DNA of 64,000 nucleotides, taken from the NCBI RefSeq assembly GCF_963921235.1, contig NC_086097.1, positions 74,030,001 through 74,094,000 of the forward strand, in the 5' to 3' direction. Numbering within the stretch: position 1 is the first letter of the stretch; the number at the start of each line of letters is the position of its first letter. Positions 13,552-63,440 of this stretch are shown here, in pieces. The notes under the pieces are model-generated. The model had not been told where the DNA came from. It did not search any database and worked only from the letters and a program-made list of their open reading frames with translations. A program made the translations under genes and the position numbers. Source of the DNA: Mobula hypostoma (lineage: Eukaryota).

Positions 13552-13669
13552 ATGCTTTAACCAAAAGGTAAAAGCATTCTGAACAGAATATTAAATGGAG
13601 GCACATTCTACTCTCAGAATGTTCAAATTGGAACATTACCTGCTTAGTACTTGACACGGTCTTAAAAAC

Positions 13670-15090
13670 CTATGCAACCAAATGGTTGGAGTGTCCAAGG
13701 ACAGCTTCAACCTCTCACTGCTATAGAAAGAAGTTCCCTGCTTCAAAAGGGCATCAAATATATCACTGTCGATTTTCACAAATAAAATTAAGTGAGACAC
13801 TTTTATGTATAATGAAACATGCAACACCTTTTATAGAACCCCAAAACCTACAGATAAAAGTGTGTTAAACTCTTCTCATAATAATGTCATCATGTCAAAC
13901 CAGACTCTTAAAGTGAAACCCCAATAACCCAATTCAATGTCAGTGGTTGTGAATTATATACATTTCCACCAATTATGTTACCCTACACTAGAACCTAAGA
14001 AGAGCAGGGTGTGCTGCCACAATGATTGCCTAGTAGCACTCACATCTGCTGTGATGAAGTGCTTTGAGAGGTTGGTCCTATGTAGAACTAACTCTTGACT
14101 GAGCAAAGAGTTGGACTTGCTGAAATTTGTCTACCATCACAACAGGTTTACAGCAGATGCAATCTCACTGGCTCTCCACTGAGCTTTGGAGCAGCTGGAC
14201 AACAAGCATACTTACATCAAACTGCTGATTATCAATTACAGCTCACGATTCAACACCATCATCCTCTAGGTTTCTCCAATGACAAAACTGTTGTTGGCAA
14301 AACCTCAGATCATGATGAGCAGGCTTACAGGAGAGGACAGAAATAAGCCCTTTGGCCCATCTAATCTGTGCTGAACTATTATTCTGTCTAATATCATTGA
14401 TGCACCTGGACCACAGCCCTCCAAGTCCCTCCCATTCATGCACTTATCCAGACTTCTCTTAAATGTTGAAATAAAATCCACATCCACCATTTCCACTTGT
14501 TCCATTATCCTCTGAGTGAAGAGATTTCCTCAGGTTTCCCTTAAACATTTCACCCTTCACCCTTAACACATGATCTGTAATTCCAGCCTCAGCGTTTGAG
14601 GAAATTTGGTAAGTGACTAAAGACTCTAGCAAATTTGTACAGACGTATCACAGAGAAGATTCTGATTGCTGCAACAGCATCTGCAAATGCACAGGATTGT
14701 AAGAGGCTTTAAACTAAGCCGGCACCATCATGGGCTCACCACTCCCACCACTAAGGGCATTTTCAAAATGTGGCATCCATCATTAAGAACTCTCACTTTC
14801 TGTGACATCCCTCTGATTGCTACCATCAGAGAGGAGGTAAAGGAGCCTAAAGACAGCACTCAACATTTTTAGGAACAGCTTCTTCCCCTCTGCCATCAGA
14901 TTTCTCAACAGTACATGAACACTATCTCACTATTCCTCTTTTGCCCTATCTACCTATCTATTTATTTAGCTATCTGGCCATCTATTTACTTATTTACTGA
15001 AACTTATTGCAATTTGTTATGCCTGCACTGCTCTGCTGCCTCAGAACAACAAATTTCTCAACTGATGTCAGAAACAATAAACCTGATTTT
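13670..15090 (+). mobile_element. Rex1/Babar LINE fragments interrupted by the LTR and by a CR1 3' end (about 14335-14595, minus)
   Basis: A decayed FNLSLL..FKRAS motif before the LTR continues as PKKSRV...ALTSAVMKCFERLV after it. The 3' end has RNSFFPSAIRFLN and an AATAAA tail. Confidence 0.75.
13767..13987 (-). mobile_element. Second copy of the Gypsy LTR (solo-LTR-like)
   Basis: Homologous to 11295-11507, with the same GTTACCCTACA end. No PBS next to it. Confidence 0.8.
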
Positions 15091-21460: not shown

Positions 21461-23034
21461 ACCCAAGGGTCTGCCTTTCACAAGATAATGGGAAAATCTC
21501 AGCTGTGCTTTGATGAAGAAACTTGAAGATGTATTTTAAGCCACTTAAAAAAATACTGTACCTCTGCAATTTCAATCATGCTTCTGTTGAGAAATCAGGA
21601 ATTTATCATGGAAAAAAAACAAAGTCTAACCTGTTACCACTGTGAACAGAAAAGACCTGCTTCCTTAAAGCTCTGGTCTGTAAAAGGCACCAAACTCTAT
21701 CTTACTTAGCTTTATAAAAAAAAAGGACCATTAGCACAATTCACTCTCTGTGCTCAGCAACAAAGCATGAACAAGGGCAGCAATTAGTGCACTGCAGTTT
21801 TTCTCAGAACTCTAGGCTAAATAGTATGAGTAAAAAGTCAGGTTTCTTATTGCTGGTCATTATCCAGTAGCTTCTGGGAAAGTATATATACTTATGACAG
21901 GCTCACTAATTTATCCTTTGATTAGAAACAGCAGCACCTGTGATTTGGAACTTACCTGCAAACCATCTACAGTAGCCATACAATGTCTTATGTGCTATTC
22001 TTTAAGTTGGACAGGACTGCATTCTGGTGACATAATGACAACTGTAAACTACATATTAAAAGGTAAAATTAACAGAAAGCAACTTTCAGTGAATGCTTCA
22101 TTGCATTGTTCCTTTGCTGCTGCTAAGTTAACAAATTTCACGACACATGCCGGTGATAATAAACCCGATTCTAATTCTGGTGGAAGATGGCACTAGCATT
22201 TAAATCACTGCCTATTATCTAACCTTACTATTACCTTCTTAGCAATACATCATGGAAGGCATGGAATAAATATTGCACATATCTCAATTAACTAAATGGG
22301 TATCAAAAAGACCGCAGACGTTGCTAATCAAAAATATACACAGGAATTGGCGGAAATACCCATTTATAATATTGGCTTGTTTTTCTCGTTCCATTAGTAC
22401 AATCGGGCCTTCTGGCTATGTCACTACAGCTCTGCAGTTAATAATACACAATAATCTTTTAGTATCCCCATAAACCCTTTTGAATTAGGCTCAACCTTTA
22501 TCCTATCTATTCTTCTCACCATCTGCTCTAAATCTTAAAATAATCTTTTATTGCCTTGTGATCTCAGATCCAATGAAGGATCTCTGACCTAGGATGTTAA
22601 TTCTGTTTCAATTTTTGCAGATGCTGCCTAACATGTTGAATGTTTCTAGTAGTTTTTATTCCAATTATGCTCTTTTAAAACTTATTCAGAATCATTCAAA
22701 CAGATATGATTATCTAATCATATCAAGTATTAGGATCAGTACTTGTGCAGTTTACTTGAGGAGAACCAAGGAAATGTAAGCAGTGCCATTCAGGTACAAG
22801 ATACATCATTTTAGGTAAAGTTTTGGAAAAATATTGTTGAACACCAATGAAGGTCATAAACATGTCTACTGGGAGCTGGATTTTACAACCAAGTTATTAG
22901 GAACTTCGTCACAATAGGGAACTCATTGCTTAATAGTCACAAAAGAAGAACTGATTTCATTCTTGTAGTTTGGCAAAACTTTAACCTATGTCATACAGAA
23001 AATATTATGCCAACTTAGTCTCCAGAAAACTCGA

Positions 23035-28032: not shown

Positions 28033-28250
28033 AAACAGAAGAGATTTTGTAGATGCTGGAAATCTTGAACACCACACTTAAAATGCTGAAAGAACTCAAG
28101 AAGTCAGGCAGCATCTATGGAGGAGAATAAATAGTTGATGGTTCAGGCAGAAACTCTTCCATCAGGACTGGAAAGGAAGGTGCCAGAAACTAAAATAAGA
28201 AGGTAGGGGGAATGGAAGGAGTACAAGCTAGCAGGTGATCGGCGAGACAA
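28033..28250 (-). mobile_element. Penelope-like terminal fragment with decayed hammerhead
   Basis: Homologous to the elements at 31680-31845 and 49238-49606 (GCAGCATCTATGG...CATCAGGACT). Confidence 0.7.
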
Positions 28251-29320: not shown

Positions 29321-31679
29321 GCCCATGAAAATAAACATGAAATTGAACTTAAATTTTATCTGACAATGCTCTGTCAATGCTCTATCAACGCAGTTATTTA
29401 AAGAACTTAATCCTGGAGCCAATTAACAAAAATCACCCAAAGGTGGGTGGGTGGTGTGGGGGGGGGGGGTGTAAAGTAGCTTAAAACTCTTTATTCAACT
29501 GTTATTTAGTGCCTTCACAATTAACCTTGCCTGTGAAAAGGTAAAGTTCAGCATTTGTGAGAAAGAAATATTATTACATTAACTTAAACTTCCTCTCCCA
29601 CCTCCATCAACTGTCCTCCGAAAAGCCCAACTTCCTGCCAAGTAATTTAAGAGTAGCTGCCAACCTTGAAATGTTTGCGTAATGATATGCAAAAATCATT
29701 CTCAATATAATTGGAGTTTTGGAACTGGATGGCGACATGACTAAATATAGTAAAATTAAGCACTTAAAATTAATTAAGGAACTCTAAGATAATTAAATGA
29801 CTGACCTTGACATTAACATCTATACATTTTTACCATTTATCAATGACTTTAAAATTTGCTTTCTTAGACAGAATCTATTGTAAATCAAAATGAATTTATG
29901 AAAGAAAACAGTGCAGTAGTCTTTCAGCATTTCAATTAGCATTTTGATATTTTGTTCAATTAAGTGTTAGATTAACATTTAAATGTTCAACAATCTTTGG
30001 TTTTAAATACATTTGCCACATTATTTGTTAAAAAGTAAGTAATGGCTCTCTTTACGAGCTTTACAAATGAGTGATCAATGAGAGATGATTAGGAATGATT
30101 TAATGAAGAAAACAGTGAAAGGAGAAAAATAAAAATAAATATATTTGTTAATTTGTGAGATCCATTATATTTTTGTTCATTGACACATAGGAATACAGAA
30201 ATAGAATCAGTAGGCCATTCAGTTCTTTATGCTGCAAAGTCATTCCTAATACTAATATCAGGGCAAGATTGCAGTAACACCATTACAGAATAAAATATCT
30301 TTATTGTTATTTTTTCCCAAATGCCTTTGCACCTCTGCTTTAGCTTTGCTTTTCTTTCCCCATTCTTCCTGTACATATAAAGGGAGAAACAGAAGAGAGG
30401 GGACAGAATGAGATGGATGAATGAGTGATGAGGGGAAATTCTGAAACCTACACAGATAGGACAAGTTAAAACAAGTTAGACTGGAATGAACTGCAAAAAA
30501 CAACGGAGAAGCAAAATTGTCTGTGGCTGCAAAGGAATAGCAGCTAACATGGAATGAAGCTGTTACGTGCAAAATAATGAGCTCAGTCAATTTTGATGCA
30601 GTCCACTGCTTGTGCTCATACTCTCTTCTCCTGCATCTGCCTCACAGGGCCAAACTGGAAGTCAGGACAGTACAGCTAACCTTGCAGGTAGAACAAGTAG
30701 TCAAGTAACATTTTATCAATAGACACTGGATCCGGAGGCACTGTCTTCCCGGATGGCCTTTGAACTGTTTCTAAATGTCTCCGATAAAGAGAAACTGAAA
30801 GAATATTAAAATAGATTTAAACAATTTACCTAAAATTATATCAACTTAAATAATCTTACAGGTCTGGAAATTCATTACATTAATAAACATAAAGATAAAA
30901 ACTTTAAAAATCTGATCACATATTTGCAACTCACTCTTTTCAATCAAGGTTGGTGACCACATTCAGATTAACGGGACTGTGTTGCAAACACAATCAAAAT
31001 TTACAGTTCAATGTAAATGTATTATCAAAGTATATATATATCACCATATACAAACCTGAGATTAATTTTTTGTGGAACTACTCAATAAATATCAATAACC
31101 ACAATACTCAACAACCATAATAGAGTAAATAAAAGACTACATCTACCGGGCACTCGAGCAGTGTGCATTTTCCTCTCAGCTCATTGATGAGCTCAGTGGC
31201 AAAGTGGAAAGTCAGATTTAGAGACACAGATATCAGAAACAGGTTGATCCAGAGGAGGGCTTCCCATTAGATGTAGCTTTATAAGCTGTTGGTCGCACCA
31301 CACAGGAGTATTTTGAGCAGTTTTGGGCTCCTTATCTAAGAAAGGATGTGCTGGCATTGGAAGGAGTTCAGAGGAGGTTCACAAGAGCGATCCCGGGAAT
31401 GAAAGCTTTAATGTATGAGGAGTGCTTGATGGCTCTGGCTTGTACTCGCTGGAATACATGGGGGTGGGGGGGATTCTCACTGAACCTATTGAATGTGAAA
31501 AGATCTAGATAGAGTGAGCATGGAGAGGATGTTTTCTATAGTGGATGAGTCTAGGACCATAGGGCACATCCTCAGAAGAGGATATTCCTTTAGGACAAAG
31601 ATGGAATTTCTTTTGTCAGAGGGTGGTGAATCTGTGGAATTCATTGCAATATGGAGGTCAAGTCATTGGGTATATTTAA

Positions 31680-31845
31680 ACAACAACACAAAATGCTGAA
31701 GGAACTCAGCGAGCCAGGCAGCATCTATGGAAAAGAGCAAACAGTCAACGTTTCAGGCTGAGACCCTTCATCAGGACTGTCTGGCCTGCTAAGTTCCTCT
31801 AGCATTTTGTGTATGTTGCTTGGATTATTTGTTTTTTGGTCTTTA
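31680..31845. mobile_element. Fold-back Penelope-like mini-element with 11-bp TSD
   Basis: TSD GGTATATTTAA at 31669-31679 and 31846-31856; imperfect inverted arms. Confidence 0.8.
31741..31780 (-). ncRNA. Minimal type I hammerhead ribozyme (Penelope-associated)
   Basis: Minus strand ACAGUC-CUGAUGA-AGGGUCUCAGCCU-GAAA-CG-UU/GACUGU: intact core, perfect 6-bp stem I, palindromic ACGU in place of stem III. Confidence 0.75.
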
Positions 31846-33254
31846 GGTATATTTAAGGCTGAGGATAGGTTATTGACATTAAAGGTGTCAAAGGTTACAG
31901 GCAGAAGGCAGGAGAATGAGTTTGAGGGGGATAATAAATCAGCCATGACAGAATGGCAGAGCAGACAAGATTGGCCAAACAGCCTCATAATGCTCCTAAC
32001 TGTCTTATGGTCTAGATCTCCACAGAGATGCTAGCAAAAGGCACTGAATGTATTGAGTAAAAATATCTAGTTTTGTTAAAGATGCAATCCAAATTGATAG
32101 CTAATTGACTTGTGAAGGCTGTTCCTAGAATACTTAATTTCCAGAATGACAAAATGGTAACTGCATCCCAGACAGTTGGAAAGCAATGACCTTTATTTTG
32201 CTTCAATTCAATTTCTGGGTATTCAAGACAAAGATTACGAAACAGAGATCAGTAGAACAGCCTACCTATTTGGCAAATTAGAAACATCTCAAGGATAGTT
32301 ATTCATTTCTGCAGCAACACTATTTGCTCTTCCTCAACAGTGCATCCAATTTAGATAACACCTATAGCACAATTTCAATTTAATTTTATTAGCTTCAGTG
32401 GAGATTACAAACAAGAGGGATACTCCTGATACACCATCTTTTGGTGCTCTTCTCTGCTTACAGACTACCATCATTCAAATATAGTGGAGCCATTTCAAGG
32501 TCAAATATTTCTAGTTTCCTGAATGAAATATGTAGCTGCCAATATTTAACTTTACAATGATTGCAAAGGATATTTTAGAAATGGATTTCTTGCCAGATTT
32601 GTCCACCAAACAAAGCACAGCTCTATTTCTTTTTTTTTGAATCATTACTTCAGCTCTGCAAGTTATTTTTTTTGCTCCAGTGTTAAAGAAAATTAAATGA
32701 CTGTGAACAGAATTACCACGGCACTTGTCATTAGATCCTCTAAATTTTGCAACTTGTTCAATTATGTAATGGTGGATATAGCATGCTAGGTGTTATTTTG
32801 AAATCTGAAATTTTAACCATTATTCCAGAAGCTCTAACCAAATTATTAAACCCATCCTTCTGATGCAGATTATTCACAGCAAGCGACTTGAGGTAGTGCA
32901 TAAATATCGCAAACCTTATCTTTACAAAATCCTCTAACTTCACTAGGAGAAAAATGAACCAATATCACATCCCTTACGCAGGCCAACATCCCGAGTATTA
33001 AGGTTCAAGTTACGCTCAGTCATCTATGACATATGGCTATATCATTGTAACGCCCTATATGAGGATGGATCATGAGATGGATAATCTATTCCAAGCTTTG
33101 CTATAGGAATAAATTACCAAGCAATGAAAATATTAAAGGACGTGAGAGTCGCTTTGAAGAGGAGCAACATTTCCAATGCGGAACCTCCATAAGACCAGAA
33201 GACATTGGAGCAGAAATAGGCATTCGGGCCATCGAGTCTGATCCATCACTCCAA

Positions 33255-34954: not shown

Positions 34955-36502
34955 GTTCCTTATGTCCAGTCTATTCCACAATTTAGTTTTCGTTGCATTC
35001 ATTGCAGAAAACCCCGCTTCTCAGAGATATGATGTTGGAAATGGAAGCAAGGTTTTCAGTGCTTTCGTGGCTATCTCAGGATATTCAGCCTTGATTTTGA
35101 TCCAGAATGCTGGCAGAGGTGTTATGTCAAACATACTTTTCAGCCCACCATCATTTGCAAGCGTGAGGAGTTGATCTTCTTCCCGCGCTGATATGGATGA
35201 TTCACCGGGGACAATAACAAATGGGCCACCGACCCATTCCTTTGCATGTCTTGGGTCATTTGCGATTGGGAAGTAACGCTCGAATTCTGTCAACAGTGAA
35301 GATAGGTGATCGCGCACCAGCTGTGAGCCTCAGTCTCTCCCAAATTCCCAGCTAATATTGGGAACATGTCGAATATGCCGCTGTCCACTCGCCGTCCCCA
35401 CAGTTCCAGTTTGGCTGTGAAAGCAGACACTTTATCTGCCAAGTTGAAGACAGTTGTTATTCTCCCCTGAAGTGACAAATTGAGTTCATTGAGCAGGTTG
35501 AAGATGTCACATAGATAAGCGAGTTTTGCTATCCACTCCTCGTCACTGAAGTGTGTTGCCAGTGGTGACTTTTTTCTTGAAAGGAATCTGTGCAGCTGTT
35601 CTCTTAACTCAAAAATCCTGGCCAGGTCTCTCCCCCTTGATAGCCACCTGACTTCAGTGTGTAACAGAAGGCATTTGTGGTCTGCATCCATTTCCTCGCA
35701 AAGATGCTCAAACAGACGTGAGTTAAGGACTTTTGCTTTGATGTGATGATAACTTCAACAATGTCACTCAATACGCTGTTAAGATCAGGTGACATTTTTC
35801 AGCTAGCCAGCATTTCCCTGTGTGTGACACAGTGTGTAGACTGGCATTCAGGAGCAACCTCTTTGACTCGGGTAGTGAAACCAGACTCGTTTAGCTGTTC
35901 CAACAGCTGTGCTTCAATACCCTCCGTTATGTCATCGATTCTCCTTGAAACTGTGGTAGCTGAAAGAGAAACCTGTGCCACCTTGTTAGCTGCAGCTTCT
36001 CCCAACAGCTCACGGCACATGTCCTTGGCAGGAGGCAGAATCAATTCTTCACCAACAGTGAAAGGCTTCATAACCTTAGCAATACAGCTAGCCACTAAGT
36101 ACGACGCTCTCAGAGCAGCAGCATTTGTGGAGGTGGTGGCTCTCAACACCTGCTTCTGTCCCGCTTGCTCACGTTTTTTTCCCGCTCAAAAAACCCAACG
36201 GGTTTGTCTTTAAGTGCAGGGTGATTGGACTCAAGGTTCCGAAGCAGTTTTGAGGGCTTCACTGCCTCATTAGACAGCTTGTCTCCACATATCACATATG
36301 GGGGGCTTGGAGCGTGTGAGTCACCTGTCACAATAAAGCCATATTTTATGTACAACTCGTCGTATTTTCTGTTGAAGGAAGCTTTCTTTTTTTTTGCAGT
36401 CTCGGCCTCAGCTGTCTCTGTGTTATCATCATCATTAGGCCTTTTATGTCCTCTACTATCTCTTCCAAAGAAACTCTCAAGCGGCGTTTGTTTTTCACCC
36501 AT
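34955..36502 (-). pseudogene. Buster-type hAT transposase pseudogene (frameshifts, stop codon, internal deletion)
   Basis: BED-like RKYDELYIKYGF...CGDKLSNEAVKPSKLLR, KPFTVGEELILP, THCVTHREML, LLLHTEVRWLSRG and LLPFPTSYL*EAGFS. Confidence 0.92.
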
Positions 36503-37001
36503 CGAGCAGTTGTAGGTTAATGACCGACTGATGACCTCGCGTGCGTTTAAGTTCAACAGTGGGCGTGACAGGGAATGAGGAAAGATGCAGTTGACTCATA
36601 TCGTTTCCTTGTGGCCTGGTAGCACATGTTTTGCGGCCCGGTACCGGTCCGCAGCCCGGTGGTTGGGGACCACTGATCTAAAACTTTGACAAATCTCTTT
36701 TGATGTGTGGTGGAGAGTATATTGATTGACTGCATCACAGCCTGGCTTGGAACCACCAGTGCCCTTGATCGTTATGCTACACTGTATCCCCTATTTGTCA
36801 AGCCCTTACCTTAAACTGTTCACAGTGCACAATGCTGCATTGGATCCGTTTTCACTACTTCTTTCTGCAGTGCCACTTCAGAAACTCCATGATTCCAGAC
36901 CCAGTATTACATTTCCAAGATCTTCTGAGAGTACAAAAATGACCTTGATTTCCATCACTCCTTCATTTCTCTCAATACATCTCCACAGATTTATTCTTCT
37001 T

Positions 37002-37056: not shown

Positions 37057-39204
37057 CCAAATTATCCCTGACTCAAAGCACAAGTTCCAAATATGAGCAG
37101 CTAAAGTTGCTGGCAAAGAGCTGGTTAATGGTCAAGGAACAAAACCTATTCACAGGAAATTTTGCAAATGCTGGAAATCTGAAACAGACACAAAATGCTG
37201 GAGGAAATTGCCATTTTATGCATGCCAAACAAAACACTTTCACTGGTGCCCAGCTGCAATGTTCACCTAGCACCCATTTCTACATCCACTCAAATCAAAA
37301 GTTCATTACAAATAGAGCAGTTATAGTCCAAACAGCAGTTAACATGAACAACTTCAGTTCTGAAGGTTTGTTAATGAGTATGAGGATGACTCAGGGACTA
37401 AACTGGCTTTCAGCCCGAGTATCCCCTTAACTTAATCCCTTAAACTCAGAGCTCTTACTTAGGGAACTCTTGTTGACAGATGGTTTGGTGATGATTCACC
37501 AGAGCAATCAGCAAAATATTATTTTCAAATTACTTCTATGAATTAATCTGCTAACATTTTAACTAGTAAAGATATACTAAAAATTTTAATAATATGCTGA
37601 AAATGGCACTTAAAATTTTCAATTTCTATTCTAATATATTTTCACAATAATTCAGCATTGATGTGCTTAGTATCCTGCCCTAACACAATGGTTTATAGCC
37701 TATTTAAGCTGATGTACAAAACAAAAATCTTCATATCCTGAACCTCTTTTGGTATTGTGTAATGATTGCAGAACATGGTTCGGTTGTCTTTTGCTTAATT
37801 ACTGGAAATCCAGACAGGTGAGAAACAAAATCAGGTAATATCTAACTCTTTGCCTTAAGCCAAAAAAAGTAGTAATTTTCTATTTAATTACAATCCAGAA
37901 CTATTTGGGGTCACTGTGACTATTCAACAAAGCAGCCTTTGTCACCAATTCAGTCTGGTATTTTACAATATGAGCTAGTCACAAACAACAGGTTTGTCTA
38001 ACTGAAGCAATGAGTCAGGTCATGACCAATGTTATTTCTGCCAGCTCTCTTTATTAGTAACATTTTTGATTTAAAAACTGTGACTTCAGAATGAAATTTT
38101 GCACTAAGATAACTGCAAAAGCTGTTCAGTGTTAATGTCATCATGTCAGAGAGTTTACAATGCAAACTATATAAATATACAGTGATTCCCAGTTAACTGA
38201 GCCACTGGTTAATCGAGGCAGCTGCTTATTTTGGACAACTCTTAAAAGAACAAAAACTAATCATGAAAATAATCAGGATTCCCTTTGAAACACACACAAA
38301 ATGCTGGAGGAACTCAGCAGGTCAGGCAGCATCGATGAAAATGAGTACAGTTGACATTGCAGACTAAGATTCTTATTCAGGACTGGAAAGAGGGACTTAC
38401 TTTGTTTATTGGGATACTATACTGCTTAATAGGGCAGGAAACTATTGTCAAACAGTTTCTAACTAGTATTAGTCACTTGTATTTACGTGACATTACACCG
38501 TGCTTTGAACAAACAGTTTTAAATAGCATCAGTTGTGTGTGTTTGTCTTCAAAATGCAGTGATTTCTGTCTCTGATAGTTGACAAGAAATAAGCACTCAG
38601 ACAATTTAAAGCTGTTTTGCTCACTGCGGTTTCAAGCATTCAGGTCTGCTGATCCCAGAAACATCTCCGGGATTGAAAATGAAACAATTTCACAACTTCA
38701 ACAAGTTGGGAACTACAAAGAATTTGAAGGTATAAACAATCATCTTGAAGGTTACAATTGAAATTAAGATTTCTTGGATGCAAATGCTGACAGCATTGTA
38801 TGAAGGTAATCCAGATACTAGGTGTCATGCTAATTTTGAAAATTTACAGTTAAAGAACGCGACATGGATAAATTCCTCCGTTGATAAGTACAAAGAACTA
38901 ATACACAGTTTTATAGTGCTGTGGTAGTATTAGTAGTGTTCTAATTTGTTCTACATTTCATTTAAATACATAATTTGTTACTCAGTTTGTCTTTTTTATA
39001 TCTTTTTAACTATTTCTTTCCAATATTTTTATTAGTTTCTACATAGAAGAATACAGAGTACAAGGAAGTATATATAAAAGGTCAAAAAAGATTTTTTAAA
39101 ACTACCAATTATATTATATTTATTCATAATAACAATTTCATTACCCTGTATTCATGTAAGTTAATCAATAGCTATATTGAAATATACTAATTTATATACG
39201 TTTC

Positions 39205-44642: not shown

Positions 44643-45396
44643 TTTTTCAAAGCTTGCAGAGAGATTTGAGCCAGTTGGAAGAGTGGGCTGAAAGATGGCA
44701 GATGGAGTTTAATGCTGATAAGTGTGAGGTGCTACATTTTGGTAGGACTTATCAAAATAGGACATACATGGTAAATGGTAGGGTATTGAAGAATCAGAAG
44801 AACAGAGGGATCTAGGAATAATGGTGCATAGTTCCTTTAAGGTGGAATCTCATGTGGATAGGGTGGTGAAAAAAGCTTTTCGTATGCTGGCCTTTATAAA
44901 TCAGAGCATTGAGTATAGGAGTTGGGATGTAATGTTAAAAATATACAAGGCATTGGTGAGGCCAAATTTGGAGTATTGTATACAGTTCTGGTCACTGAAT
45001 TATAGGAAAGATGTCAACAAAATAGAGAGCGTACAGAGAAGATTTACTAGTACGTTACCTGAGTTTCAGCACCTAAGTTACAGAGAAAGGTTGAACAAGT
45101 TAGGTCTTTATTCTTTGGAGCGTAGAAGGTTGAGGGGGGACTTGATAGAGGTATTTAAAATTATGAGGGGGATAAATAGAGTTGACGTGGATAGGCTTTT
45201 TCCATTGAGAGTAGGGGAGATTCAAACAAGAGGACATGAGGGAAAAGTTTAGGGGTAACAGGAGGGAGAACTTTTTTACTCGGAGAGTAGTAGCTGTGTG
45301 GAATGAACTTCCAGTAGAAGTGGTAGAGGCAGGTTTGATTTTGTCATTTAAAAAAAAATTGGATAGGTATATGGACAGGGAAGGAATGGAGGGTTA

Positions 45397-45800
45397 GAAA
45401 CCATAGAAACCATAGAAGCTACAGCACAGAAACCGGCCTTTTGGCCCTTCTTGGCTGTGCCGAACCATTTTCTGCCTAGTCCCACTGATCTGCACACGGA
45501 CCATATCCCTCCATACACCTCCCATCCATGTATCTGTCCAATTTATTCTTAAATGTTAAAAAAGAACCCGCATTTACCACCTTGTCTGGCAGCTCATTCC
45601 ATACTCCCACCACTCTCTGTGTGAAGAAGCCCCCCCCTAATGTTCCCTTTAAACTTTTCCCCCCTCACCCTTAACCCATGTCCTCTGGTTTTTTTCTCCC
45701 CTTGCCTCAGTGGAAAAAGCCTGTTTGCATTCACTCTATCTATACCCATCATAATTTTATATACCTCTATCAAATCTCCCCTCATTCTTCTACGCTCCAG
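45397..45800 (-). mobile_element. CR1 3' end nested in CR1
   Basis: MRGDLIEVYKIM...TRGHG; (TTCTATGG)n-type tail; GGTTA at both junctions. Confidence 0.88.
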
Positions 45801-48800
45801 GTTATGGGCTGAGTGCAGGTAGATGGGACTAGGTGAGAGTAAGCGTTCGGCATGGACTAGAAGTTTCCGTGCTGTAATTGTTATATGTTATATAAGTTCT
45901 TATCTGAGCTTATAGGAAATGTGCATAATTGAGATCTTAGAATGTCTCTGATTTGTAGATATCTAAAAAAAGTGAGTTTTGGGTAAGCTATATTTAGCTG
46001 GCAATTTCTCAGATGAAAAAAGATTTCCTCCAACAAACAGATCTCAAAAACATTTAATACCCAACCTGTCCCATTCTTTAAAAAACTAAAATTCTATGAA
46101 ACTTCGGCTCATTGGGGCAACTGCTTAATTGAGCCAAAATGTACTTGTCTCAATATGTCCAAATCAACAGGAATCCACTGTATTTTATATCTACAGAGTT
46201 TCAAAGCAATTATGAACTCAGTTAACATAAAGAGAAATTGAGGTATGACACAAGTAATCAATCAGAGATTTCATCAATTGCTTGAATGTCATTTATGGAC
46301 ATAACATGAGCATCAGATCCATAATCTTTCCGTTAACCTTATTTCCCCATGACTCTAACTTGTGTGAGAAATTCCGTGGAACGGCTGTAACTCAACTCTT
46401 TTCATAAATGAAGTAAACTTTGGAAGATAGATGGAAAGCAGATTAGAGTGAATTGCTGTGGATAGGATTCAGACTGAGATACAAGGTTCTCTTTAGTCAG
46501 GTCTTTATTTATGTATTTTATAGAGACTCAAATTAATGTCAAAGATAGATAGATCAATTCACATGAAGATGGACACAAATAAAAGATCCCATAGTCTATT
46601 GGATTACAAACCGATGAATGATGAAAATAATGCCAAAACAAAGGACTCTAGAAATAGGATGATGCACATTTATTTGCAAATAATCGAGAAACTAGGTTTA
46701 TTTCTTTCTTACAATTTTTCTCCAAAAACTTTCTGTAATCCTTTGTATGATAAAATTGTGCTTCTATTGGATAATGGGAAGTTACTGAACTGAAGTGATC
46801 TATTTTCCAATGTGCATCAATGTAGAAGTGGAAGTCTATTTCTGGACTTAAGCTTGCATTCTCATTTGATAACAATGAATAAAATTGCAGATGCTGGGAT
46901 CTTTTATTTCTTCTTAACAATAGACTATGGAATCACATCAATGATCTCAGATCTCATTCGATGGTTAAATGCAGAGCAGAAGTCATGAATTCCAGAGGAG
47001 CATATAAGCAGGTTGCCTTTAAGGGTCAACCCCATGGCTGAAAATGTGCCAGGAGAGGTGGAATTCAAACCAGCCTGAAAAACAGAGGGATGCTCCTTTA
47101 CCCAGCATCTTATTGGCATATGTGCAGTCACTGACAAATTAGACTGACAAACTCAGAGAAAGGCTACTGTATCAGAGGCAGATGAGGCAGATCTCAATTG
47201 TTTGTTGCACTGAAACTTGGTTAAATGTGAATACTCCGGACTTAGCCAAATGACTAGGTTTTACAATCTTCAGAATGGATTGAACCACAAACATGCAAGG
47301 AAAAAGGTGGCGTGTCTGATTTTTAGTCAATTCTCATTAGTGCACGGACATTATGGTTAGGTCGACTTCTTGTTTCCTTGACTTACAACACCTAACGATT
47401 AAATGTAGACCATTCTATTTGCCTTGGGAGTTCTCCTCTGTGATCCTGACTGCAGTTTGCATACCACCAGTGGCCAATTACAAGCAAGCACTCGCAAAAC
47501 TGCATGATTTCTGCAAGCAAGAAACAGTCCATCCTTACGCATTTCAAATTGTAGTCAGCGACTTTAACCAGGCCTGTTTGAAAAAAAAACTTGCCCAATT
47601 ATCACCAGCACATAACCTGCTGCACCAGAGGTCCCAATACACCAGACCACTGCTAAGCTATGATAAGGAATGCCTGCTGTTCCTTTCTGAGACTCCATTT
47701 TGGCAACTCAGATCATTTGGCTGTACTCCTACTACCTGCATACAGAGCCTAAAAAGCAAGGCTCCAGAGGTTAAGACAACTATGTGGTGGTTGCAGGAGG
47801 CAGAGGAACAGTTACAGGATTGCCTTGAGTCAGTGGATTGGGCTGTGTTCAAGAACTCATCTGAGCATCTGAATGACAACACCAGGGCTGTAGCAGATGA
47901 GTGTGTCCCCATGAAATCATTCAGGGTTTACTCCAATCTGAAGCCCTGGATGAACAACGAAGAGAGCCAGACCAGAGGCATTCAAGTCTGGAGATCAAGA
48001 ATGTTACAAGAGGTGTAGGTATGATCTCCAGAAAGCCATCTCATGACGAAGTGGAGGTTCCAGACTAGAATGGAATCAACGAGGGATGTTCCACAGCTAT
48101 GGCAGGATGTGAATGCCATAACCTCCTTCAAATTAATCTTACAACACAAGGGACAGCAGAGCTTCACTTCCAGAGGAATTCAATGCCTTCTATGCTCACT
48201 TTGACCACAAGACAGGGAGGAATGATCGCACACCTCCATGTCACCTGATGAACTTTTGTTCTCAGTATCTGTAGATGACGTGTGGGCTGCCTTCAAGAGA
48301 GTGAATCCAAGGAAAGCATCCGGTCCAACCGAGTACCTGACTGAGTACTGAAGAACTGTGACGACCAGCTGGCTGCTGTGTTCACGGATATCTTCAGCCT
48401 CTCGCTTTGGCAGTGTGTGGTACCCACCTGCTTCAAGCAGGCTTCAATTGTACCTCTGCCCAAGAAGAGAGTGGTGACCTGCCTCAATGACCATCGTCTA
48501 GTGGCACTTATATCTGCAGTGATAAAGTGTGAAGTGTTTTGAGAGGCTGGTGTTGAAGCATATCTGCTCCTGTCTGAGTGGCGACTTGGATCCAATCCAC
48601 TTTGCCTGCTGAAGCAACAGGTCTACAGTGGGTGCCATTTCACTGGCTCTTCACACAACCCTGGAACATCTGGACAGCAAAGATGCATACATCAGGATGC
48701 TCTTTATCAATTACAGCTCAGCATTTAATACCATCATCTCCTCAAAACTAATCAGTAAACACCAAAACCTGGGCTTTAATACTCACTGGTACAATTGGAT

Positions 48801-49237
48801 TTTGGATTTCCTCACTTATAGACCCCAGTCAGTTGGATTGGCAAAAACACCTCCTCCACAATCTTTGTCAGCACAGGAGCACCACAGAGATGTGGGCTTA
48901 GCCCCCTGCTATACTCACTTTACACCTATGACTGTGTAGCTGAGTACAGCTCCAACACTATGTACAAGTTTGCTGATGACTCCACTGTTGTGGGCAGTGT
49001 CAAAGGTGGTGATGAGTCAGCATATAGGACGAAGGTTGAAAATTTGACTGAGTGGTGTCATAACATCCTCTCACTCAATGTCAAAAAGACCAAGAAGCTG
49101 ATTGTACACTTCTGGAAAAGGGTACCAGTAGTCCATGAGCCAGTAATTATCAGAAGGTCGGAGGTGGAGAGGGTCACTAATTCCTGGCTGTCACTATCTC
49201 AGAGAACCTGTCCTGGACCCATCATATAAATATATTG

Positions 49238-49606
49238 CAACACACATAAAAATTGCAGGTGAACACACCACGCCAGGCAGCATCTATAGGAAGAGGTACA
49301 GTCGACGTTTCGGGCCAAAACCCTTTGTCAGGACTAACTGAAAGAAGAGATAGTAAGATATTTGAAAGTGGGAGGGGGAGGGGGAGATCCGAAATGATAA
49401 GAGAAGACAGGAGGGGGAGGGATGTCCCCCTCCCCCTTTCAAATCTCTTACTATCTCTTCTTTCAGTTAGTCCTGACGAAGGGTCTTGGCCCGAAACGTC
49501 GACTAGTCCTCTTCCTATAGATACTGCCTGGCCTGCTGCGTTCACCAGCAATTTTTATGTATGTTGCCTAAAATTCCAGCATCTGCAGATTTCCTCGTGT
49601 TTGCGT
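49238..49606. mobile_element. Fold-back Penelope-like mini-element with 14-bp TSD
   Basis: TSD ATATAAATATATTG at 49224-49237 and 49607-49620; inverted arms of about 145 bp. Confidence 0.88.
49468..49505 (+). ncRNA. Minimal type I hammerhead ribozyme, predicted cleavage after GUC at 49500
   Basis: UAGUC-CUGACGA-AGGGUCUUGGCCC-GAAA-CG-UC/GACUA: intact core, 5-bp stem I, GGGU/GCCC stem II. Confidence 0.8.
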
Positions 49607-49819
49607 ATATAAATATATTGTCAAATAAAACATAACAGTGGTCTATTTCCTCAGGTGTCTGCGGAGAGTCAGCATGTCATCAAAAACCTTGGCAAACCTT
49701 TAGAGATTTGTGGTGGAAAGTTTCCATACGGCCTGGTATGCCCACAGGAAAAAGAATCTCAGGGTTGTATTTGGTGACATGTATGTACTCTGGTAATAAA
49801 TTTTACTTTGGACTTAGAT

Positions 49820-50100
49820 CTGAAATGAAAGCTGAAAACATTGGGAACACTCAGCAAATTGAGTGGCATCAGTGGAAAAAGAAACAAAGCAAACCATTTG
49901 GGTTGAAGACCCTATGTCAGAATGGGGAAGACAGTTTTAAAAGATTTAAATCGTCGTGAGACTAATGCGAAGAACTAACTTCCTTTCTCCATTTATCAGT
50001 TTCGATGGAAGTTCTTCAACATGAAATGTTAATTCTGCTTCTCCTTCCATTGGTAAAGTCTGACCTGCTGAGCGTTTCCATCAGTTTACTTTTAATTTTC
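49820..50100. mobile_element. Older, degenerate fold-back Penelope-like remnant
   Basis: Decayed inverted arms (ACTCAGCA...GCATC and GACCTGCTGAGC) with eroded ribozyme cores. Confidence 0.5.
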
Positions 50101-50239
50101 TCATCTTGAAAAAATGTGAAACTATTTCTTAGATTATTCATTCCTGTAAACTTTAGATTCAAAATATAATCTCTGTAGTGGAGTAATATAGTTTGTGTCG
50201 CATAAATTATAGCTGTTCAGCCCACAAATGCTATGTGTT

Positions 50240-50780
50240 TCCATCACCTTCTTTGCCAGCGAAGTCCTGATTTTAAGCATACTATGTAAATAAATACTTT
50301 GAAACTCCTTCTCACTTTAAACCTAAACCAATGCCCTTTTGTTTTGGTAACCTTGCAACATGAAAAAGATCCTGACTACCCACCCTCTCCTTATATACAT
50401 CTATCAGGTCACCCCTCTGATTTGTTTTGTCTGGGAAAGCAGACCCAACCTATTCGAACTCTCACCATAACTGAAGTCTTCAATCCACACAGCATTTTGG
50501 TGAACATCCTCTGCACTTTCTCCAAGATAACCACATGTTACTCCAGATATTAAACCAGAACTTCACTCAATGCCCGAAGTTTTTTAAAGTTGCGACAAAA
50601 CATCCTGACCTCTGACAGCAAGCACACCATATATCTCCTTCACCACCCATTTACCTGTTTTGTCACTTTCAGAGAACTCTAGACTTGAACGCCAAGATTC
50701 CTTGTTTATCAACATTCCTTAGTTCCCTGCCAATTAAGCTGATGACCTAAACCTATGCGAGTTCCCATAATGCATTATCT
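50240..50780 (-). mobile_element. Degenerate CR1 fragment
   Basis: The minus strand gives decayed LGVQV, VQRMFTKML and RGDL motifs. Confidence 0.6.
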
Positions 50781-53520: not shown

Positions 53521-54469
53521 GATGAGACAATACAGGCTAGAAATTCTTTTTAAGGCAAGGGGAAATCTGACAGTCAGACATGAAACAGTGCAACACAGAG
53601 AAAGCTGGAGGGACTCAGCAGGCCAAACAGCAACAGCTGTAATCTTCAAACAACTCTTCTGTCACTTGAGATGAATTAATGTTGAAAAATGTGTCAACCA
53701 TGCTGTGGAATTTGTACCAGGCAAGTTCAGAATAGACTTGGACACACCCTTCATCCCCCTCCCCTGGGAAGACCATGATCACATTCACTTATAGCAGCTG
53801 TGGGCCTCCCAATGTCCCAGAGGCCTGGTTGCCATGGATATCTAAGGAGATGGAGTGACCTATGGGCATCCGATGGTGCAGACTAAGCATCACCTCAGAC
53901 TGCTCTGACTGCCTTGCAATAGCTCATGCTGCCTGAAGGTCTTACCATGTAGCCAAAAACATTTGAAATACATTTAAACGATTAAAAGAATTTTTGAAGT
54001 ATTTAAGAACGCATTTATTATATGCCAGTTAATACACTGTTAGATACGTAAATAAATTAAAGGGTATTAACAGCAGGTTTATAATTAAGGTCAGCTACCC
54101 CATTCAAGTAAAAGGGCAAACACTTGTACACCAGCTGGTGTAAAGCTGTGGGTTCAGATATGAAGTGAATCCAGCCCCTCAGCTCAGGATGATGAGTTGC
54201 TCCAGCGCCACTGGGCTTCCAAGGTTGTGGCAGGGAGTTGGAGAGAAGAGGCAAGGCATCCAGCCATCTGTTGTATTCCACAGTTGCACAGGCGTGGAAA
54301 TTCACTGACTCCATTCCAGCAGCCAAGCAGCATTTCTCTACGGAACCACAGTAAGCCACTAATGCAATCCAGACTACTCATTCAATAACCATGGAGAAAG
54401 ACACATTTCAATATGTAGATGTAAGCAGATCTCCTAAATTCTACGCTGCAGCATGATGAAGCACTTTCA

Positions 54470-58864: not shown

Positions 58865-60465
58865 ATCATAGTCATATTGCATGGAAGCAGGTCCCCAGCC
58901 CAACAAGTCCATACAGACTTTGTTGCCCTGTGAGCTACTCCCATCTGCTCATGTTTGGTTCATAGCCCTCTAAATCTCTCCTATCTACGTACTTACATGG
59001 CTGGCTTTTAAATGTTGATAATTATCTCTGGCAGTTCACTTCAAATACACATCAACCTTTGTGTGAAGGGGCTGCCCTTGATGTCCCTTCTAAATCTCTC
59101 ACCTCTGGTCTTAAACCTAAGACCTCATTTTTTATAGTACCCCTACCCTGCAAAATGATATGTGCTTTCACCTTGTGTACATCACTCATGATTTTATAAA
59201 CCCTATCAGGTCACCTCTCAACCTTCTAGTCTACACAACCTCTCCTTGTAACTCAGGCCCCCAAGTCCAGGTAATGTGCTGGTAGATCTTTTCTTACTCT
59301 TTCACACAACAGGACGACCAAAACTGTACAGAATATTCCCAATGCAACCTTACCAACATCATAGAGTAATATGAACAGAAAAAGGCCCTCTCCACCAACC
59401 TCTCCTCCCTGTTATTCCAGCTACCCACACTCGGCCTATAATCCTCCAAGCCCTTCTCCTCCATGTACCTATCCAAATGCCGCTTAAATGTTGCAATTGT
59501 ACCCACCTCTATCACTTTCTCTGGCAGTTAATTCCAGGTACTCACTATCCTCTGTGTAAAGAAGTTACCTGTCAGGTTTCTTTCAAATTTTTCCCCTCTT
59601 GTCTAGTATCTGTGCCCTCTAGTTTTGGATTCTACAACCCTGGGAAAAGACTATGACTGTTCACCTTACTCACACCCCTCATGACTTTATGTACATTTCT
59701 TGTTGTCCTGTGCTCCAAGGAATAAAGATCATGACCAACCTCTCCCTATTACTCAGAGCCCCTCATCTAAGCAGCACTCTCATAAATCTCTCGTGCACTC
59801 TCTCCAGCTTGATAATGTCTTTCCTATAACAGGATGACCAAAACTATGCACAATATTCCAAACAACAGGAATTCTGCAGATGCTGGAAATTCAAGCAACA
59901 CACATAAAAGTTGCTGGTGAACACAGCAGGCCAGGCAGCATCTCTAGGAAGAGGTGCACTCAACGTTTCAGGGTCTCGGCCTGAAACGTCGACTGCACCT
60001 CTTCCTAGAGATGCTGCCTGGCCTGCTGTGTTCACCAGCAACTTTTATGTGTGTTGCACAATATTCCAAGTGCAGTCTCACCAACGACTTATATAAATGC
60101 AACATACAGTCCCTTCTCCTAAACGTAATGGCTTGGTTGATGAAGGCCAGTATGCTAACCAAGTTCTTCACCATCCTGTCTACCTGTGCAGCTACTCCTT
60201 GGTCTCTCTATTCTACAACACTCCTCATTGTTCTGCCATTTACTGTATGTAAGTATTACCCTGGTTTGAATGTCCAAAGTACATTACCTCACACGTGAAA
60301 GTTGAAATTCATTTGCCATTCCTCATTCCGTCTCTCTAACTACTCAAGATTTTGTTGTAATTCATTGTGACCTGTTTCACTGTAAAAGTCTTCTGATTTA
60401 GTAGCAAACTTGCTAATCACGCCATATACATTTGCATCCAAATTATTTACAAAAATAATGAATAA
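58865..60465 (-). mobile_element. Two or more degenerate CR1 3' portions; the second continues at 63440-64000
   Basis: LVRLHWEYSVQFW, LVRLHLEYC and SKFA; QHGF and DKVP after the Rex1 insertion. Confidence 0.8.
59862..60054. mobile_element. Fold-back Penelope-like mini-element with a perfect 64-bp inverted repeat and 15-bp TSD
   Basis: TSD TGCACAATATTCCAA at 59847-59861 and 60055-60069; arms at 59895-59958 and 59994-60057. Confidence 0.9.
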
Positions 60466-60467
60466 GA

Positions 60468-63440
60468 AGTTCCTTATCAAGCGAGGGAAGAGGACCGGGT
60501 CGAGACAAAAAGGCTTATGGAGAAGAGAAGTTATAAGCCGTGTCTCCCCTCTCTCATCATGGGAAATGTGAGATCGCTGGAGAATAAAATGGATGAACTG
60601 ACGGCGCTTGTCAGGAGTCAGAGAACATTTCGGGAGAGTAGTGTCATGTGCTTCACTGAGACGTGGCTGCACGAGGACATACCCGATCAAAGCGTTTCCA
60701 TAGAGGGCTTCCAGACCGTTCAAGCTGACCAGAATTGCACTGAGAGCGGTAAGCGTAAAGGAGGGGGGCTGGGGGTTCTGGTAAATAACAGATGGTGCAA
60801 TCCTGGGCATATTATGATCAAGGAACGTGTCTGTAGCCCGGATATTGAAATCTTTGCTGTTAGACTCCGGCCATATTATTTGCCAAGGGAAATCTCGCGT
60901 GCAATTGTGGTTGTTGTGTACATCCCTCCCTCTGCCAACCCGACGTCAGCATGTAACATCATTTACACCGTCATAGCCAGATTACAAACCCAGCACCCGA
61001 GTGCTCTCATTACCATCTCGGGTGACTTCAACCAGGTTACCATGGCTAGAACACTGCCCAACTTCACGCAGTATGTGAGCTGTACAACCAGAGGTGAGAG
61101 GACTCTGGATTTGATGTACGCTAACGTTAAGGATGCATACAGCTCCTCTCCCCTCCCCCCACTGGGAAGGTCAGATCACAACCTGGTGCATCTAAAACCC
61201 TCCTATGTGCCTCTGGTGAAGAGTAAATCTGCAACCTCGAGGACAGTGAGAAAACGGTCGGAGGAGGCTTATGAGGCGCTCCAAGGTTGTTCTGAGGTGA
61301 CAGACTGGCAGGCACTCTGTGAGCCACATGGAGTGGATATTGATCGGCTCACAGAGTGCATCACTGATTGCATCAACTTCTGTGTGGACTGCAATGTTGC
61401 AACAAGAACTGCCCTTTGTTATTCAAATAATAAGCCATGGGTGAAAAAGGACATTAAGGACATCCTGAACGCTAAAAAGAGGGTGATTAGAGATGGAAAT
61501 AGGGAGGAGCTGAGGGCAATACAGAGGAACCTGAAAGCCAGGATCAGGGAGGCTAAAGACAGGTACAGGAGGAAGCTTGAGTGGAAACTCCAGCAGAACA
61601 ACATGAGGGAGGTCTGGAGGGGGATGAGGACCATCACTGGGATCTGGCAAATTAGCAACAGAGGAGCTGAATGCAGTGTGGACGGGGCCAATGAACTTAA
61701 CCTGTTCTTTAACAGATTTGACAGTGTGGCTCCTGCCCATCCCCCACATGAACCATCTGTTGTCGGCCCCCAACCAACACATATTCCACTCTCCCCTCCT
61801 ACCCCTCCTCACAGTCCCCCACCCTGCTGTCATGACTATACCACTTCCCCACACGAAACCATCCACGGTAGGCCTCACAGCTGAACATGTGAGAAGACAG
61901 CTGAAATATCTCAACCCAAGCAAGGCTGCAGGACCAAATGGTATCAGTACCAGGGTGCTCAAAGCCTGTGCCCCTCAGCTATGTGGAGTACTTCGCCATG
62001 TATTCAACCTGAGACTGAGGCTCCGGAGGGTTCCTGTACTGTGGAAAACGTCCTGCCTTGTCCCTGTGCCGAAGACACTGCTCCCCAGCGGCCTTAATGA
62101 CTACAGACCGGTGGCATTGACCTCCCACATCATGAAAACCCTGGAGAGACTTGTTCTGGAGCTGCTCCAGCCTATGGTCAGGCCACACTTAGATCCCCTC
62201 CAGTTCGCCTACCAGCCCCGACTCGGAGTTGAGGATGTCATCATCTACCTGTTGAACCGTGTCTACGCCCACCTGGACAAGCCAGCGAGCACTGTGAGGG
62301 TCATATTTTTTGACTTCTCCAGTGCACTCAACACCATCCACCCTGCTCTGCTGGGGGAGAAGCTGACAGCGATGCAGGTGGTTGCTTCCCTGGTATCATG
62401 GATTCTTGATTACCTGACTGGCAGACCACAGTACATGTGCTTGCAACACTGTGTGTCCAACAGAGTGATCAGCAGCACTGGGGCTCTGCAGGGGACTGTC
62501 TTGTCTCCCTTTCTCTTCACCATTTACATCTCGGACTTCAACTTCTGCACAGAGTCTTGTCATCTTCAGAAGTTTTCTGATGACTCTGCCATAGTTGGAT
62601 GCATCAGCAAGGGAGATGAGGTTGAGTACAGGGCTACGGTAGGAAACTTTGTCACATGGTGTGAGCAGAATTATCTGCAGCTTAATGTGAAAAAGACTAA
62701 GGAGCTGGTAGTAGACCTGAGGAGAGCTAAGGTACCGGTGACCCCTGTTTCCATCCAGGGGGTCAGTGTGGACACGGTGGAGGATTACAAGTACCTGGGG
62801 ATACGAATTGACAATAAACTGGACTGGTCAAAGAACACAGAGGCTGTCTACAAGAAGGGTCAGAGCCGTCTCTATTTCCTAAGGAGACTGAGGTCCTTTA
62901 ACATCTGACGGATGATGCTGAGGATGTTCTACGAGTCTGTGGTGGCCAGTGCTATCATGTTTGCTATTGTGTGCTGCGGCAGCAGGCTGAGGGTAGCAGA
63001 CACCAACAGAATCAACAAACTCATTCGTAAGGCCAGTGATGTTGTGGGGATGGAACTGGACTCTCTCACGGTGGTGTCTGAAAAGAGGATGCTGTCTAAG
63101 TTGCATGCCATCTTGGTCAATGTCTCCCATCCACTACATAACGTTCTGGGTGGGCACAGGAGTACATTCAGCCAGAGACTCATTCCACCGAGATGCAGCA
63201 CAGAGCGTCATAGGAAGTCATTCCTGCCTGTGGCCATCAGACATTACAACTCCTCCCTTGGAGCGTCAGACACCCTGAGCCAATAGGCTGGTCCTGGACT
63301 TATTTCATAATTTACTGGCATAATTTACATATTACTATTTAACTAGTCATGGTTCTATTACTATTTATTATTTATGGTGCAACTGTAACAAAAACCAGTT
63401 TCCCCCGGGATCAATAAAGTATGACTATGACTATGACTAC
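60468..63440 (+). mobile_element. Young Rex1/Babar LINE with almost intact EN-RT ORF (60517-63286)
   Basis: NVRSL, CFTETWL, GDFN, SDH, NDYRPVALTS, DFSSALNTI, LQGTVLSP and KFSDDS. One frameshift near 61862 and one TGA at 62906-62908. AATAAA followed by a (TATGAC)n tail. Confidence 0.95.

Follow-up and report, generated by a model that had tools for sequence, protein, structure and literature searches.

A hammerhead-bearing fold-back insert in a decayed LINE of Mobula hypostoma: a probable doubly 5'-truncated integration product of a Penelope-like element

The locus under study lies in a stretch of 64,000 nucleotides from Mobula hypostoma (NC_086097.1, positions 74,030,001 to 74,094,000), which was analyzed as a whole and is called the window below. 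An insert of 369 bp (49238-49606) interrupts the reverse transcriptase (RT) region of a decayed LINE, where a Pfam scan of the window ORFs placed an RVT_1 match in 48822-49226 (E 3.5e-7). The insert consists of two inverted copies of the 3' end of the terminal repeat (pLTR) of a Penelope-like element (PLE), enclosed by a single target-site duplication (TSD). Its features are given here together with those of its host and of two other fold-back inserts of the window.

48613..49223, plus strand: host, decayed LINE reverse-transcriptase region (RVT_1 matches, E 3.5e-7 and 0.009)
49224..49237: left TSD, 14 bp, 93% A+T
49238..49424, minus strand: tail-less arm, 187 nt from the 3' end of the terminal repeat (pLTR) of the PLE
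49238-49379, minus strand: paired portion of the tail-less arm, pairing with the other arm
49380-49424, minus strand: rest of the tail-less arm, more upstream element sequence
49299..49336, minus strand: decayed minimal hammerhead, with G8A at 49326 and a C-to-U change in stem II at 49319
49425..49606, plus strand: tail-bearing arm, a 5'-truncated stretch of 182 nt from the same pLTR end
49455..49466, plus strand: tract of pyrimidines with CAG at its end, immediately 5' of hammerhead stem I, probably splice-acceptor-like
49468..49505, plus strand: minimal type I hammerhead, complete, with its predicted cleavage site 3' of C49500
49568..49606, plus strand: unpaired tail, 39 nt, bounded by the recurrent 3' ends 49567 and 49606
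49607..49620: right TSD, crossed by contigs of X1 and X5
49621..49721, plus strand: host LINE, continuation to the right of the insert; a paralog aligns across the site
59847..60069: second fold-back insert, same family, with a 15-bp TSD (59847-61, 60055-69)
31669..31856: third fold-back insert, older subfamily, with an 11-bp TSD (31669-79, 31846-56)

A reading made from the sequence only had described a 369-bp insert with a perfect 14-bp TSD and two inverted arms, and both parts of this description were recovered. The direct repeat (49224-49237 and 49607-49620) is exact over 14 nt, at 100%. Among 20,000 random flank pairs, an exact match of at least 14 nt occurred once and one of at least 11 nt twice; these pairs were drawn from the window itself, so that the matching ones may be real TSDs. 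The arms, 49237-49379 and 49425-49567, are 143 nt long each, lie 45 nt apart and are 91% complementary, with 13 mismatches. The predicted fold of the insert has an energy of -243.8 kcal/mol (z-score -23.4), and none of 100 shuffles was equally stable. The palindrome is asymmetric, as the 39-nt tail is present on the plus arm only. Moreover, the 45-nt "loop" is further sequence of the minus arm, a point missed in the earlier reading. In the sense of the element, the minus arm thus runs for 187 nt from 49424 to 49238, loop included, and the plus arm begins 45 nt more downstream and extends 39 nt past the point where the minus arm stops.

An Rfam search of the insert returned 10 matches at E-values up to 1, with the hammerhead among none of them. 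The miRNA-hairpin matches were rejected, since they lay far below the gathering scores and reflect the hairpin shape. A scan for sigma-70 promoters, a class irrelevant to a vertebrate, remained at background level. Just right of the insert, 49842-50085 is possibly a much older fold-back: it holds two inverted, heavily decayed copies belonging to the same class of repeat, and 8 nt at 49802 match 8 nt at 50085 in the manner of a TSD.

When the insert and one copy of the TSD are removed, the flanks align to a paralog at 1565-2006 on the minus strand (72% over 444 nt). This LINE paralog is colinear over the site, indicating that the insert arrived as one unit, as had been proposed and as the single TSD also shows. 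Four of the 15 joints listed (of 673) in public contigs skip the whole insert; they belong to LINE paralogs and do not prove empty alleles. One of them leaves 29 letters between its two sides, the expected remainder of the TSD plus flank. The right junction is crossed with 0 differences by a contig of X1, which may be the source sample; a contig of organism B crosses it with 3 mismatches and 3 gaps over 141 nt. Over about 510 letters of unique flank, organism B shows 11 changed letters and 4 gaps, a difference of about 2%. Since the insert is common to organism B, the insertion predates the split and is therefore old. The central and left junctions, crossed by none of the 32 contig pieces listed (of 231,394), rest on the assembly.

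The sequence-only reading had also assigned an intact minimal hammerhead to the plus arm. A self-written descriptor of the minimal hammerhead recovered it at 49468-49505, where a stem I of 5 bp is combined with CUGACGA, a bulged A, a stem II of 4 bp and GAAA-CG-UC. The only other match in the window was at 31779 on the minus strand, and 60 Markov-1 simulated windows gave 0 matches. That the motif is of the Penelope type, as claimed, is supported by features listed in extracts of PMC4209133. Like the metazoan PLE hammerheads described there, it has a type I core with no helix III loop, a stem I of 4-5 bp, an extra, bulged base at 9/10.1, a G10.1-C11.1 pair and a palindromic 15.2-16.2. Stem II is 4 bp long here, versus 7-8 bp in S. 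mansoni (PMC4209133). A one-base shift private to the plus arm, at 49505-49507 right after the cleavage site, gives it a longer stem I than the other arm and most paralogs have.

On the minus arm, the CUGACAA core with its G8A change was found as described, at 49326. In this subfamily G8 follows C7 and is thus within a CpG, which makes G8A a CpG transition; 3 of the 6 CpG sites differ between the arms. A G8A change inactivates the hammerhead. Published data show that G8C abolishes cleavage (PMC11167929) and that a natural U3-A8 covariant exists (PMC4209133), but the minus arm has C3 with A8 and is therefore not this covariant. The 13 differences between the arms amount to a divergence of about 4.5% per arm, and the chance that exactly one arm is altered in the 13 core positions is 0.50 by a uniform-rate estimate. 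One intact and one mutated motif carry no signal; this is the likeliest single outcome of neutral decay.

The isolated plus motif forms stems I and II with a predicted probability of 0.66-1.0. Within the whole insert this probability drops to less than 1e-13, and imposing the fold carries a penalty of 57.7 kcal/mol: the other arm is antisense to the intact motif and buries it. As predicted by this folding model, the hammerhead cannot fold in a whole-insert transcript, provided that both arms are transcribed. An ACGU palindrome can pair between two copies of the motif, with a computed energy of -1.7 kcal/mol. In extracts of PMC4209133, single minimal hammerheads displayed no cleavage and dimers weak cleavage. 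The anole motif cleaved only with its own protein, and cleavage was not needed for insertion (PMC11167929).

The two other fold-back inserts of the window have the same overall layout. In the second, the tail-bearing arm is on the minus strand and the tail-less arm on the plus strand, with a central overlap of 3 nt (59970-72). Its arms display 2 differences in 78 positions and neither of them contains a whole hammerhead; its tail is 33 nt long (36 nt with the overlap into the TSD), and the TSD overlaps both ends by 3 nt. In the third, a tail-less minus arm with a hammerhead (CUGAUGA) faces a short plus arm with an eroded tail of 26 nt and no hammerhead, the central overlap being 2-3 nt. The TSDs of the three local fold-backs measure 14, 15 and 11 bp, with an A+T content of 93%, 67% and 82%. 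All three inserts have common 3' ends, one tail each and different centres (3/3). When two solo copies are added to the local arms, all eight pieces (8/8) end at the inner 3' point or run into the tail, and the 8 local pieces that were aligned start at 8 different 5' ends. The cleavage site is crossed by 5 of the 6 fold-back arms and is the starting point of none (0/6), indicating that the templates were uncut. Older solo copies of the pLTR end, without an inverted arm, were observed at 28033-28248, 38285-38400, 37172-37210, 53585-53632 and 22560-22650. The copy at 28033-28248 has a tail plus a candidate 7-bp TSD (28025, 28249).

In public contigs the family is very large: 91,488 X1 contigs align over 1.6 kb. 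The summed depth, which is not a copy number, reaches 2.1-6.4 million over the insert versus 13-23 in unique flank bins. Contig ends were compared in the 24 rows listed (of 3,359). In these rows, loose ends lie behind 49567 (199, 174 and 31 contigs in X1, X5 and X16) and behind 49606 (47 contigs in X16), and the sequence past them is heterogeneous and AT-rich. Such ends show that 49567 and 49606 are both features of the family. The same 24 rows contain 79, 108 and 64 contigs in X1, X5 and X9 that pass 49424 and enter one shared sequence, with an agreement of 0.81 among paralogous contigs; thus the centre of the insert is not an end of the family.

The remaining 11 of the 15 joints listed (of 673) link different points within the insert. 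We read them as probable fold-back paralogs with other centres, with the caution that such joints come from repeats. Six of these 11 internal joints converge on 49469-49470, partly because the older subfamily is similar only from there, and loose ends before 49469 were found for 220, 172 and 140 contigs (in the 24 of 3,359 rows listed). One joint, linking 49316 with 49469, is found repeatedly (X1, 8 contigs; X5, 1 contig; X9, 3 contigs). Paralog centres at this 5' edge of hammerhead stem I may reflect a hot spot, a subfamily boundary or a small re-amplified family. Recurrence of the insert's own centre (49424/49425) was not seen in the listed contigs. At 49487/49317 and at 49552, the two arms of the insert share letters unlike the paralog majority.

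The geometry of the insert was compared with that of known systems. The textbook PLE pattern comprises an inverted, 5'-truncated neighbour copy and a tail of 30-40 bp at one end (PMC8557442, PMC3846280; also PMC8969392 and PMC2377424). Five non-coding defining features of insertions by endonuclease-bearing (EN+) PLEs were tested and found in the insert: a minimal type I hammerhead in the terminal repeat, an adjacent inverted 5'-truncated copy placed head to head, a tail in the 30-40 bp range (39 nt) at only one of the ends, a TSD of variable length at an AT-rich target and a variable 5' truncation of a longer element. Indeed, the insert resembles the EN+ PLE units in extracts of PMC3846280 and PMC8557442 in its head-to-head truncation, one-end tail, TSD, AT-rich target and short central palindrome or microhomology. 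It is unlike them in that its halves are shorter than 200 nt and without coding sequence, and in that three examples occur in this one 64-kb window. The TSDs here measure 11-15 bp, versus the shorter A. vaga cases of 8-10 bp (PMC3846280). Pairs of minimal hammerheads on opposite strands, at distances of 100-700 bp, have been on record since 2014 (PMC4209133). As in Poseidon of Anolis carolinensis (PAc, extracts of PMC11167929), two recurrent 3' ends bound a tail after the hammerhead, and inserts extend over the uncut ribozyme site. Unlike in PAc, the inner end lies about 66 nt past the cleavage site, and this subfamily has ACG where the PAc ORF starts with ATG at stem II. The view that the insert would have worked like a PLE insertion is well supported, and we consider it very probable that a highly amplified, endonuclease-bearing PLE left it behind as an integration product that was 5'-truncated twice and dead on arrival.

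Non-LTR retrozymes (PMC7229834, bioRxiv 10.64898/2026.07.22.740005) are similar in size, non-coding and PLE-related, and also carry a type I hammerhead. However, in the extracts of these sources they are head-to-tail tandem repeats releasing circular RNAs, whereas the copies here are inverted, with no monomer release. The retrozyme identity was rejected, since 48500-50500 contains no tandem array beyond two short repeats of 6-7 nt and the copies are inverted. L1 twin-priming inversion, in which two primers at one staggered cut lead to an inverted structure within a TSD, produces halves derived from non-overlapping parts of the RNA. In contrast, the two arms of the insert span the same 143 nt. 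A fixed-structure non-autonomous family or MITE is defined by copies of equal length with the same centre, symmetric termini and a TSD of constant size. This class was rejected as well, as the local inserts are asymmetric and differ in centre, length and TSD length in 3 cases out of 3.

The insert is non-coding, and the parent enzyme was sought elsewhere. No RT/GIY-YIG partner was found by Pfam in the 20 window ORFs scanned (of 185 of at least 70 aa), which contained LINE-type RT and endonuclease only. Regular expressions for PLE-type motifs gave nothing credible over the window. DNA pattern scans for longer copies returned none in viral contigs (0 and 0), metagenomes (0) and prokaryote genomes (0); a looser pattern matched 4 metagenome loci, similar over the 16-24-nt pattern only, which were attributed to chance. 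A protein search with the 48-aa translation of the pLTR end retrieved 1 protein among 6 candidates, and another search 2 representatives. The retrieved proteins were rejected as a PLE ORF, both being host gene models with an embedded repeat. As no coding partner was retrieved, parentage rests on the ribozyme, the tail and the geometry. In the open-access literature, our searches found no paper describing this PLE family in sharks and rays, nothing describing it under palindromic non-autonomous PLEs and nothing on twin priming in PLEs.

The predicted proteins of Mobula hypostoma and M. birostris that contain the insert's repeat are a STARD3NL isoform and an uncharacterised protein. The repeat covers residues 173-209 in P0001 and 149-192 in P0002, with 86-89% and 66% identity, and no Pfam family was found for P0002. 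In both proteins it starts at about the acceptor-like site before hammerhead stem I. The presence of the repeat in two Mobula proteins suggests exonisation or mis-annotation. In Penelope of D. virilis, an intron ends at helix I (PMC4209133).

Other origins of the insert have to be considered. The sequence-only reading had left a choice between a non-autonomous mobile family and a recurrent by-product of Penelope integration. In the former case, a fixed fold-back would be transcribed and re-mobilised as a unit by a PLE enzyme. The two arms within one TSD, the very large number of X1 contigs and the recurrence of another centre (49316 to 49469) in three organisms would be consistent with this, and non-autonomous PLE derivatives are known in Chlamys (PMC8557442) and as retrozymes (PMC7229834). 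However, the internal junction is different in 3 of the 3 local fold-backs, and many different centres are found among the paralogous contigs listed. Moreover, the 79, 108 and 64 contigs described above continue past 49424 into parent sequence with no turn, and the second insert is devoid of any whole hammerhead. In a family of this size, centres would in any case be expected to recur if the joining step prefers short microhomologies. A fixed mini-family is thus improbable, and a recurrent by-product of integration, which the three different local centres support, is far likelier.

A palindrome could also result from two separate insertions in opposite orientation, or from a later local inversion or duplication, and the differences between the arms at 13 of 143 positions could be taken to indicate two events. 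Yet a single TSD surrounds the pair with no duplication at the centre, three inserts with this layout are present in the 64 kb, the arms agree with each other against the paralog majority in two letters, and those of the second insert differ at only 2 of 78 positions; we regard such an origin as very improbable. Finally, the intact arm might be a working, selected ribozyme, or the hairpin a functional RNA (a source of dsRNA or small RNA), the other ribozyme having been switched off on purpose. The core is intact, its stems I and II form in isolation, ACGU pairing between copies is possible and the hairpin is very stable. These properties are opposed by the near-zero probability of both stems in the whole insert and its 57.7 kcal/mol penalty. 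Furthermore, published single minimal hammerheads remained uncleaved and dimers were cleaved little (extracts of PMC4209133), and the anole motif required its protein (PMC11167929). The asymmetry between the arms is the expected neutral outcome, with mismatches spread across both, and the host of the insert is a dead LINE. We give hardly any credence to a selected function.

We return to the integration by-product. The mechanism producing inverted PLE ends is stated to be unresolved in extracts of PMC8557442. The anole PLE protein, a predicted dimer, nicks and extends both strands at AT-rich DNA, and its reverse transcription proceeds from two sites bounding the tail, the tail being their distance (PMC11167929). 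Self-priming and copy-back of the cDNA is an idea found in PMC3846280. For the insert studied here, a GIY-YIG endonuclease would have nicked both strands of the AT-rich site, 14 nt apart. Each nick may have primed reverse transcription at one internal start site, 49567 or 49606 (about 39 nt apart), the inner one being used on one strand and the outer one on the other. Both cDNA products would have terminated early and been joined head to head, and gap filling would have created the TSD. We infer that the integration was performed by the element family's own enzyme. The hammerhead came along with the pLTR end and has no apparent function in the insert, whose arms have decayed neutrally since the insertion.

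The second arm may have been templated either as one of two independent cDNAs, or from the inner cDNA by copy-back, in which case a tail-primed cDNA would have closed the gap. In 3 of the 3 inserts the arms are non-nested, with extra 5' sequence on the tail-less arm (45, 10 and 55 nt) and the tail on the other. Therefore simple copy-back of one cDNA cannot make a whole insert; the non-nested arms point to two probable priming events per insertion. Twin priming might be combined with copy-back: the inner cDNA would fold on a microhomology of 2-4 nt and copy itself, and a tail cDNA from the opposite nick would close the structure. We hold this combination to be possible, though rather doubtful. 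In its support, the extra sequence stands on the same side three times (1 in 8 by chance), and the central overlaps of 3 and 2-3 nt each have a chance probability of about 0.05-0.16; the overlap in the 49238-49606 insert is 0 or 4 nt, depending on the register. The letters shared by the arms (49487/49317, 49552) and the 3-nt TSD overlaps of the second insert also count in favor of copy-back. Against it count the small sample (n = 3) and the fact that shared letters may be subfamily or CpG effects. Nor were the junction hairpins recovered when the predicted 3' ends of the cDNAs were folded. If the combined scheme were true, the tail, the inversion and the TSD would all follow from a single RNA, a single protein dimer and two start sites, and inserts of this type would preserve a large natural archive of this step of PLE integration.

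As a single locus the insert matters little, being one old copy of a very large family, and the inverted PLE insertion pattern has been in print since at least 2008-2013. As a type of data, short fold-backs hold both junctions and the TSD in less than 400 bp and are easily counted genome-wide. They also spread long hairpins and sequences resembling splice acceptors across ray genomes.

The window contains further mobile elements. A fairly intact LINE (60466-63286) encodes an endonuclease and an RT in overlapping frames of 472 and 426 aa, with Exo_endo_phos, RVT_1 and ALKBH8_N-like domains. We take the ORF fragments at 35024-36595 and 11844-13865 (minus) to be hAT-type transposase-like and Gypsy-type pol-like, respectively; a Pfam scan of the ORF at 35290-35754, within the hAT-like fragment, gave no match. 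A self-inverted region of 680 bp at 45116-45799, 68% identical, is made of LINE fragments in opposite orientation.
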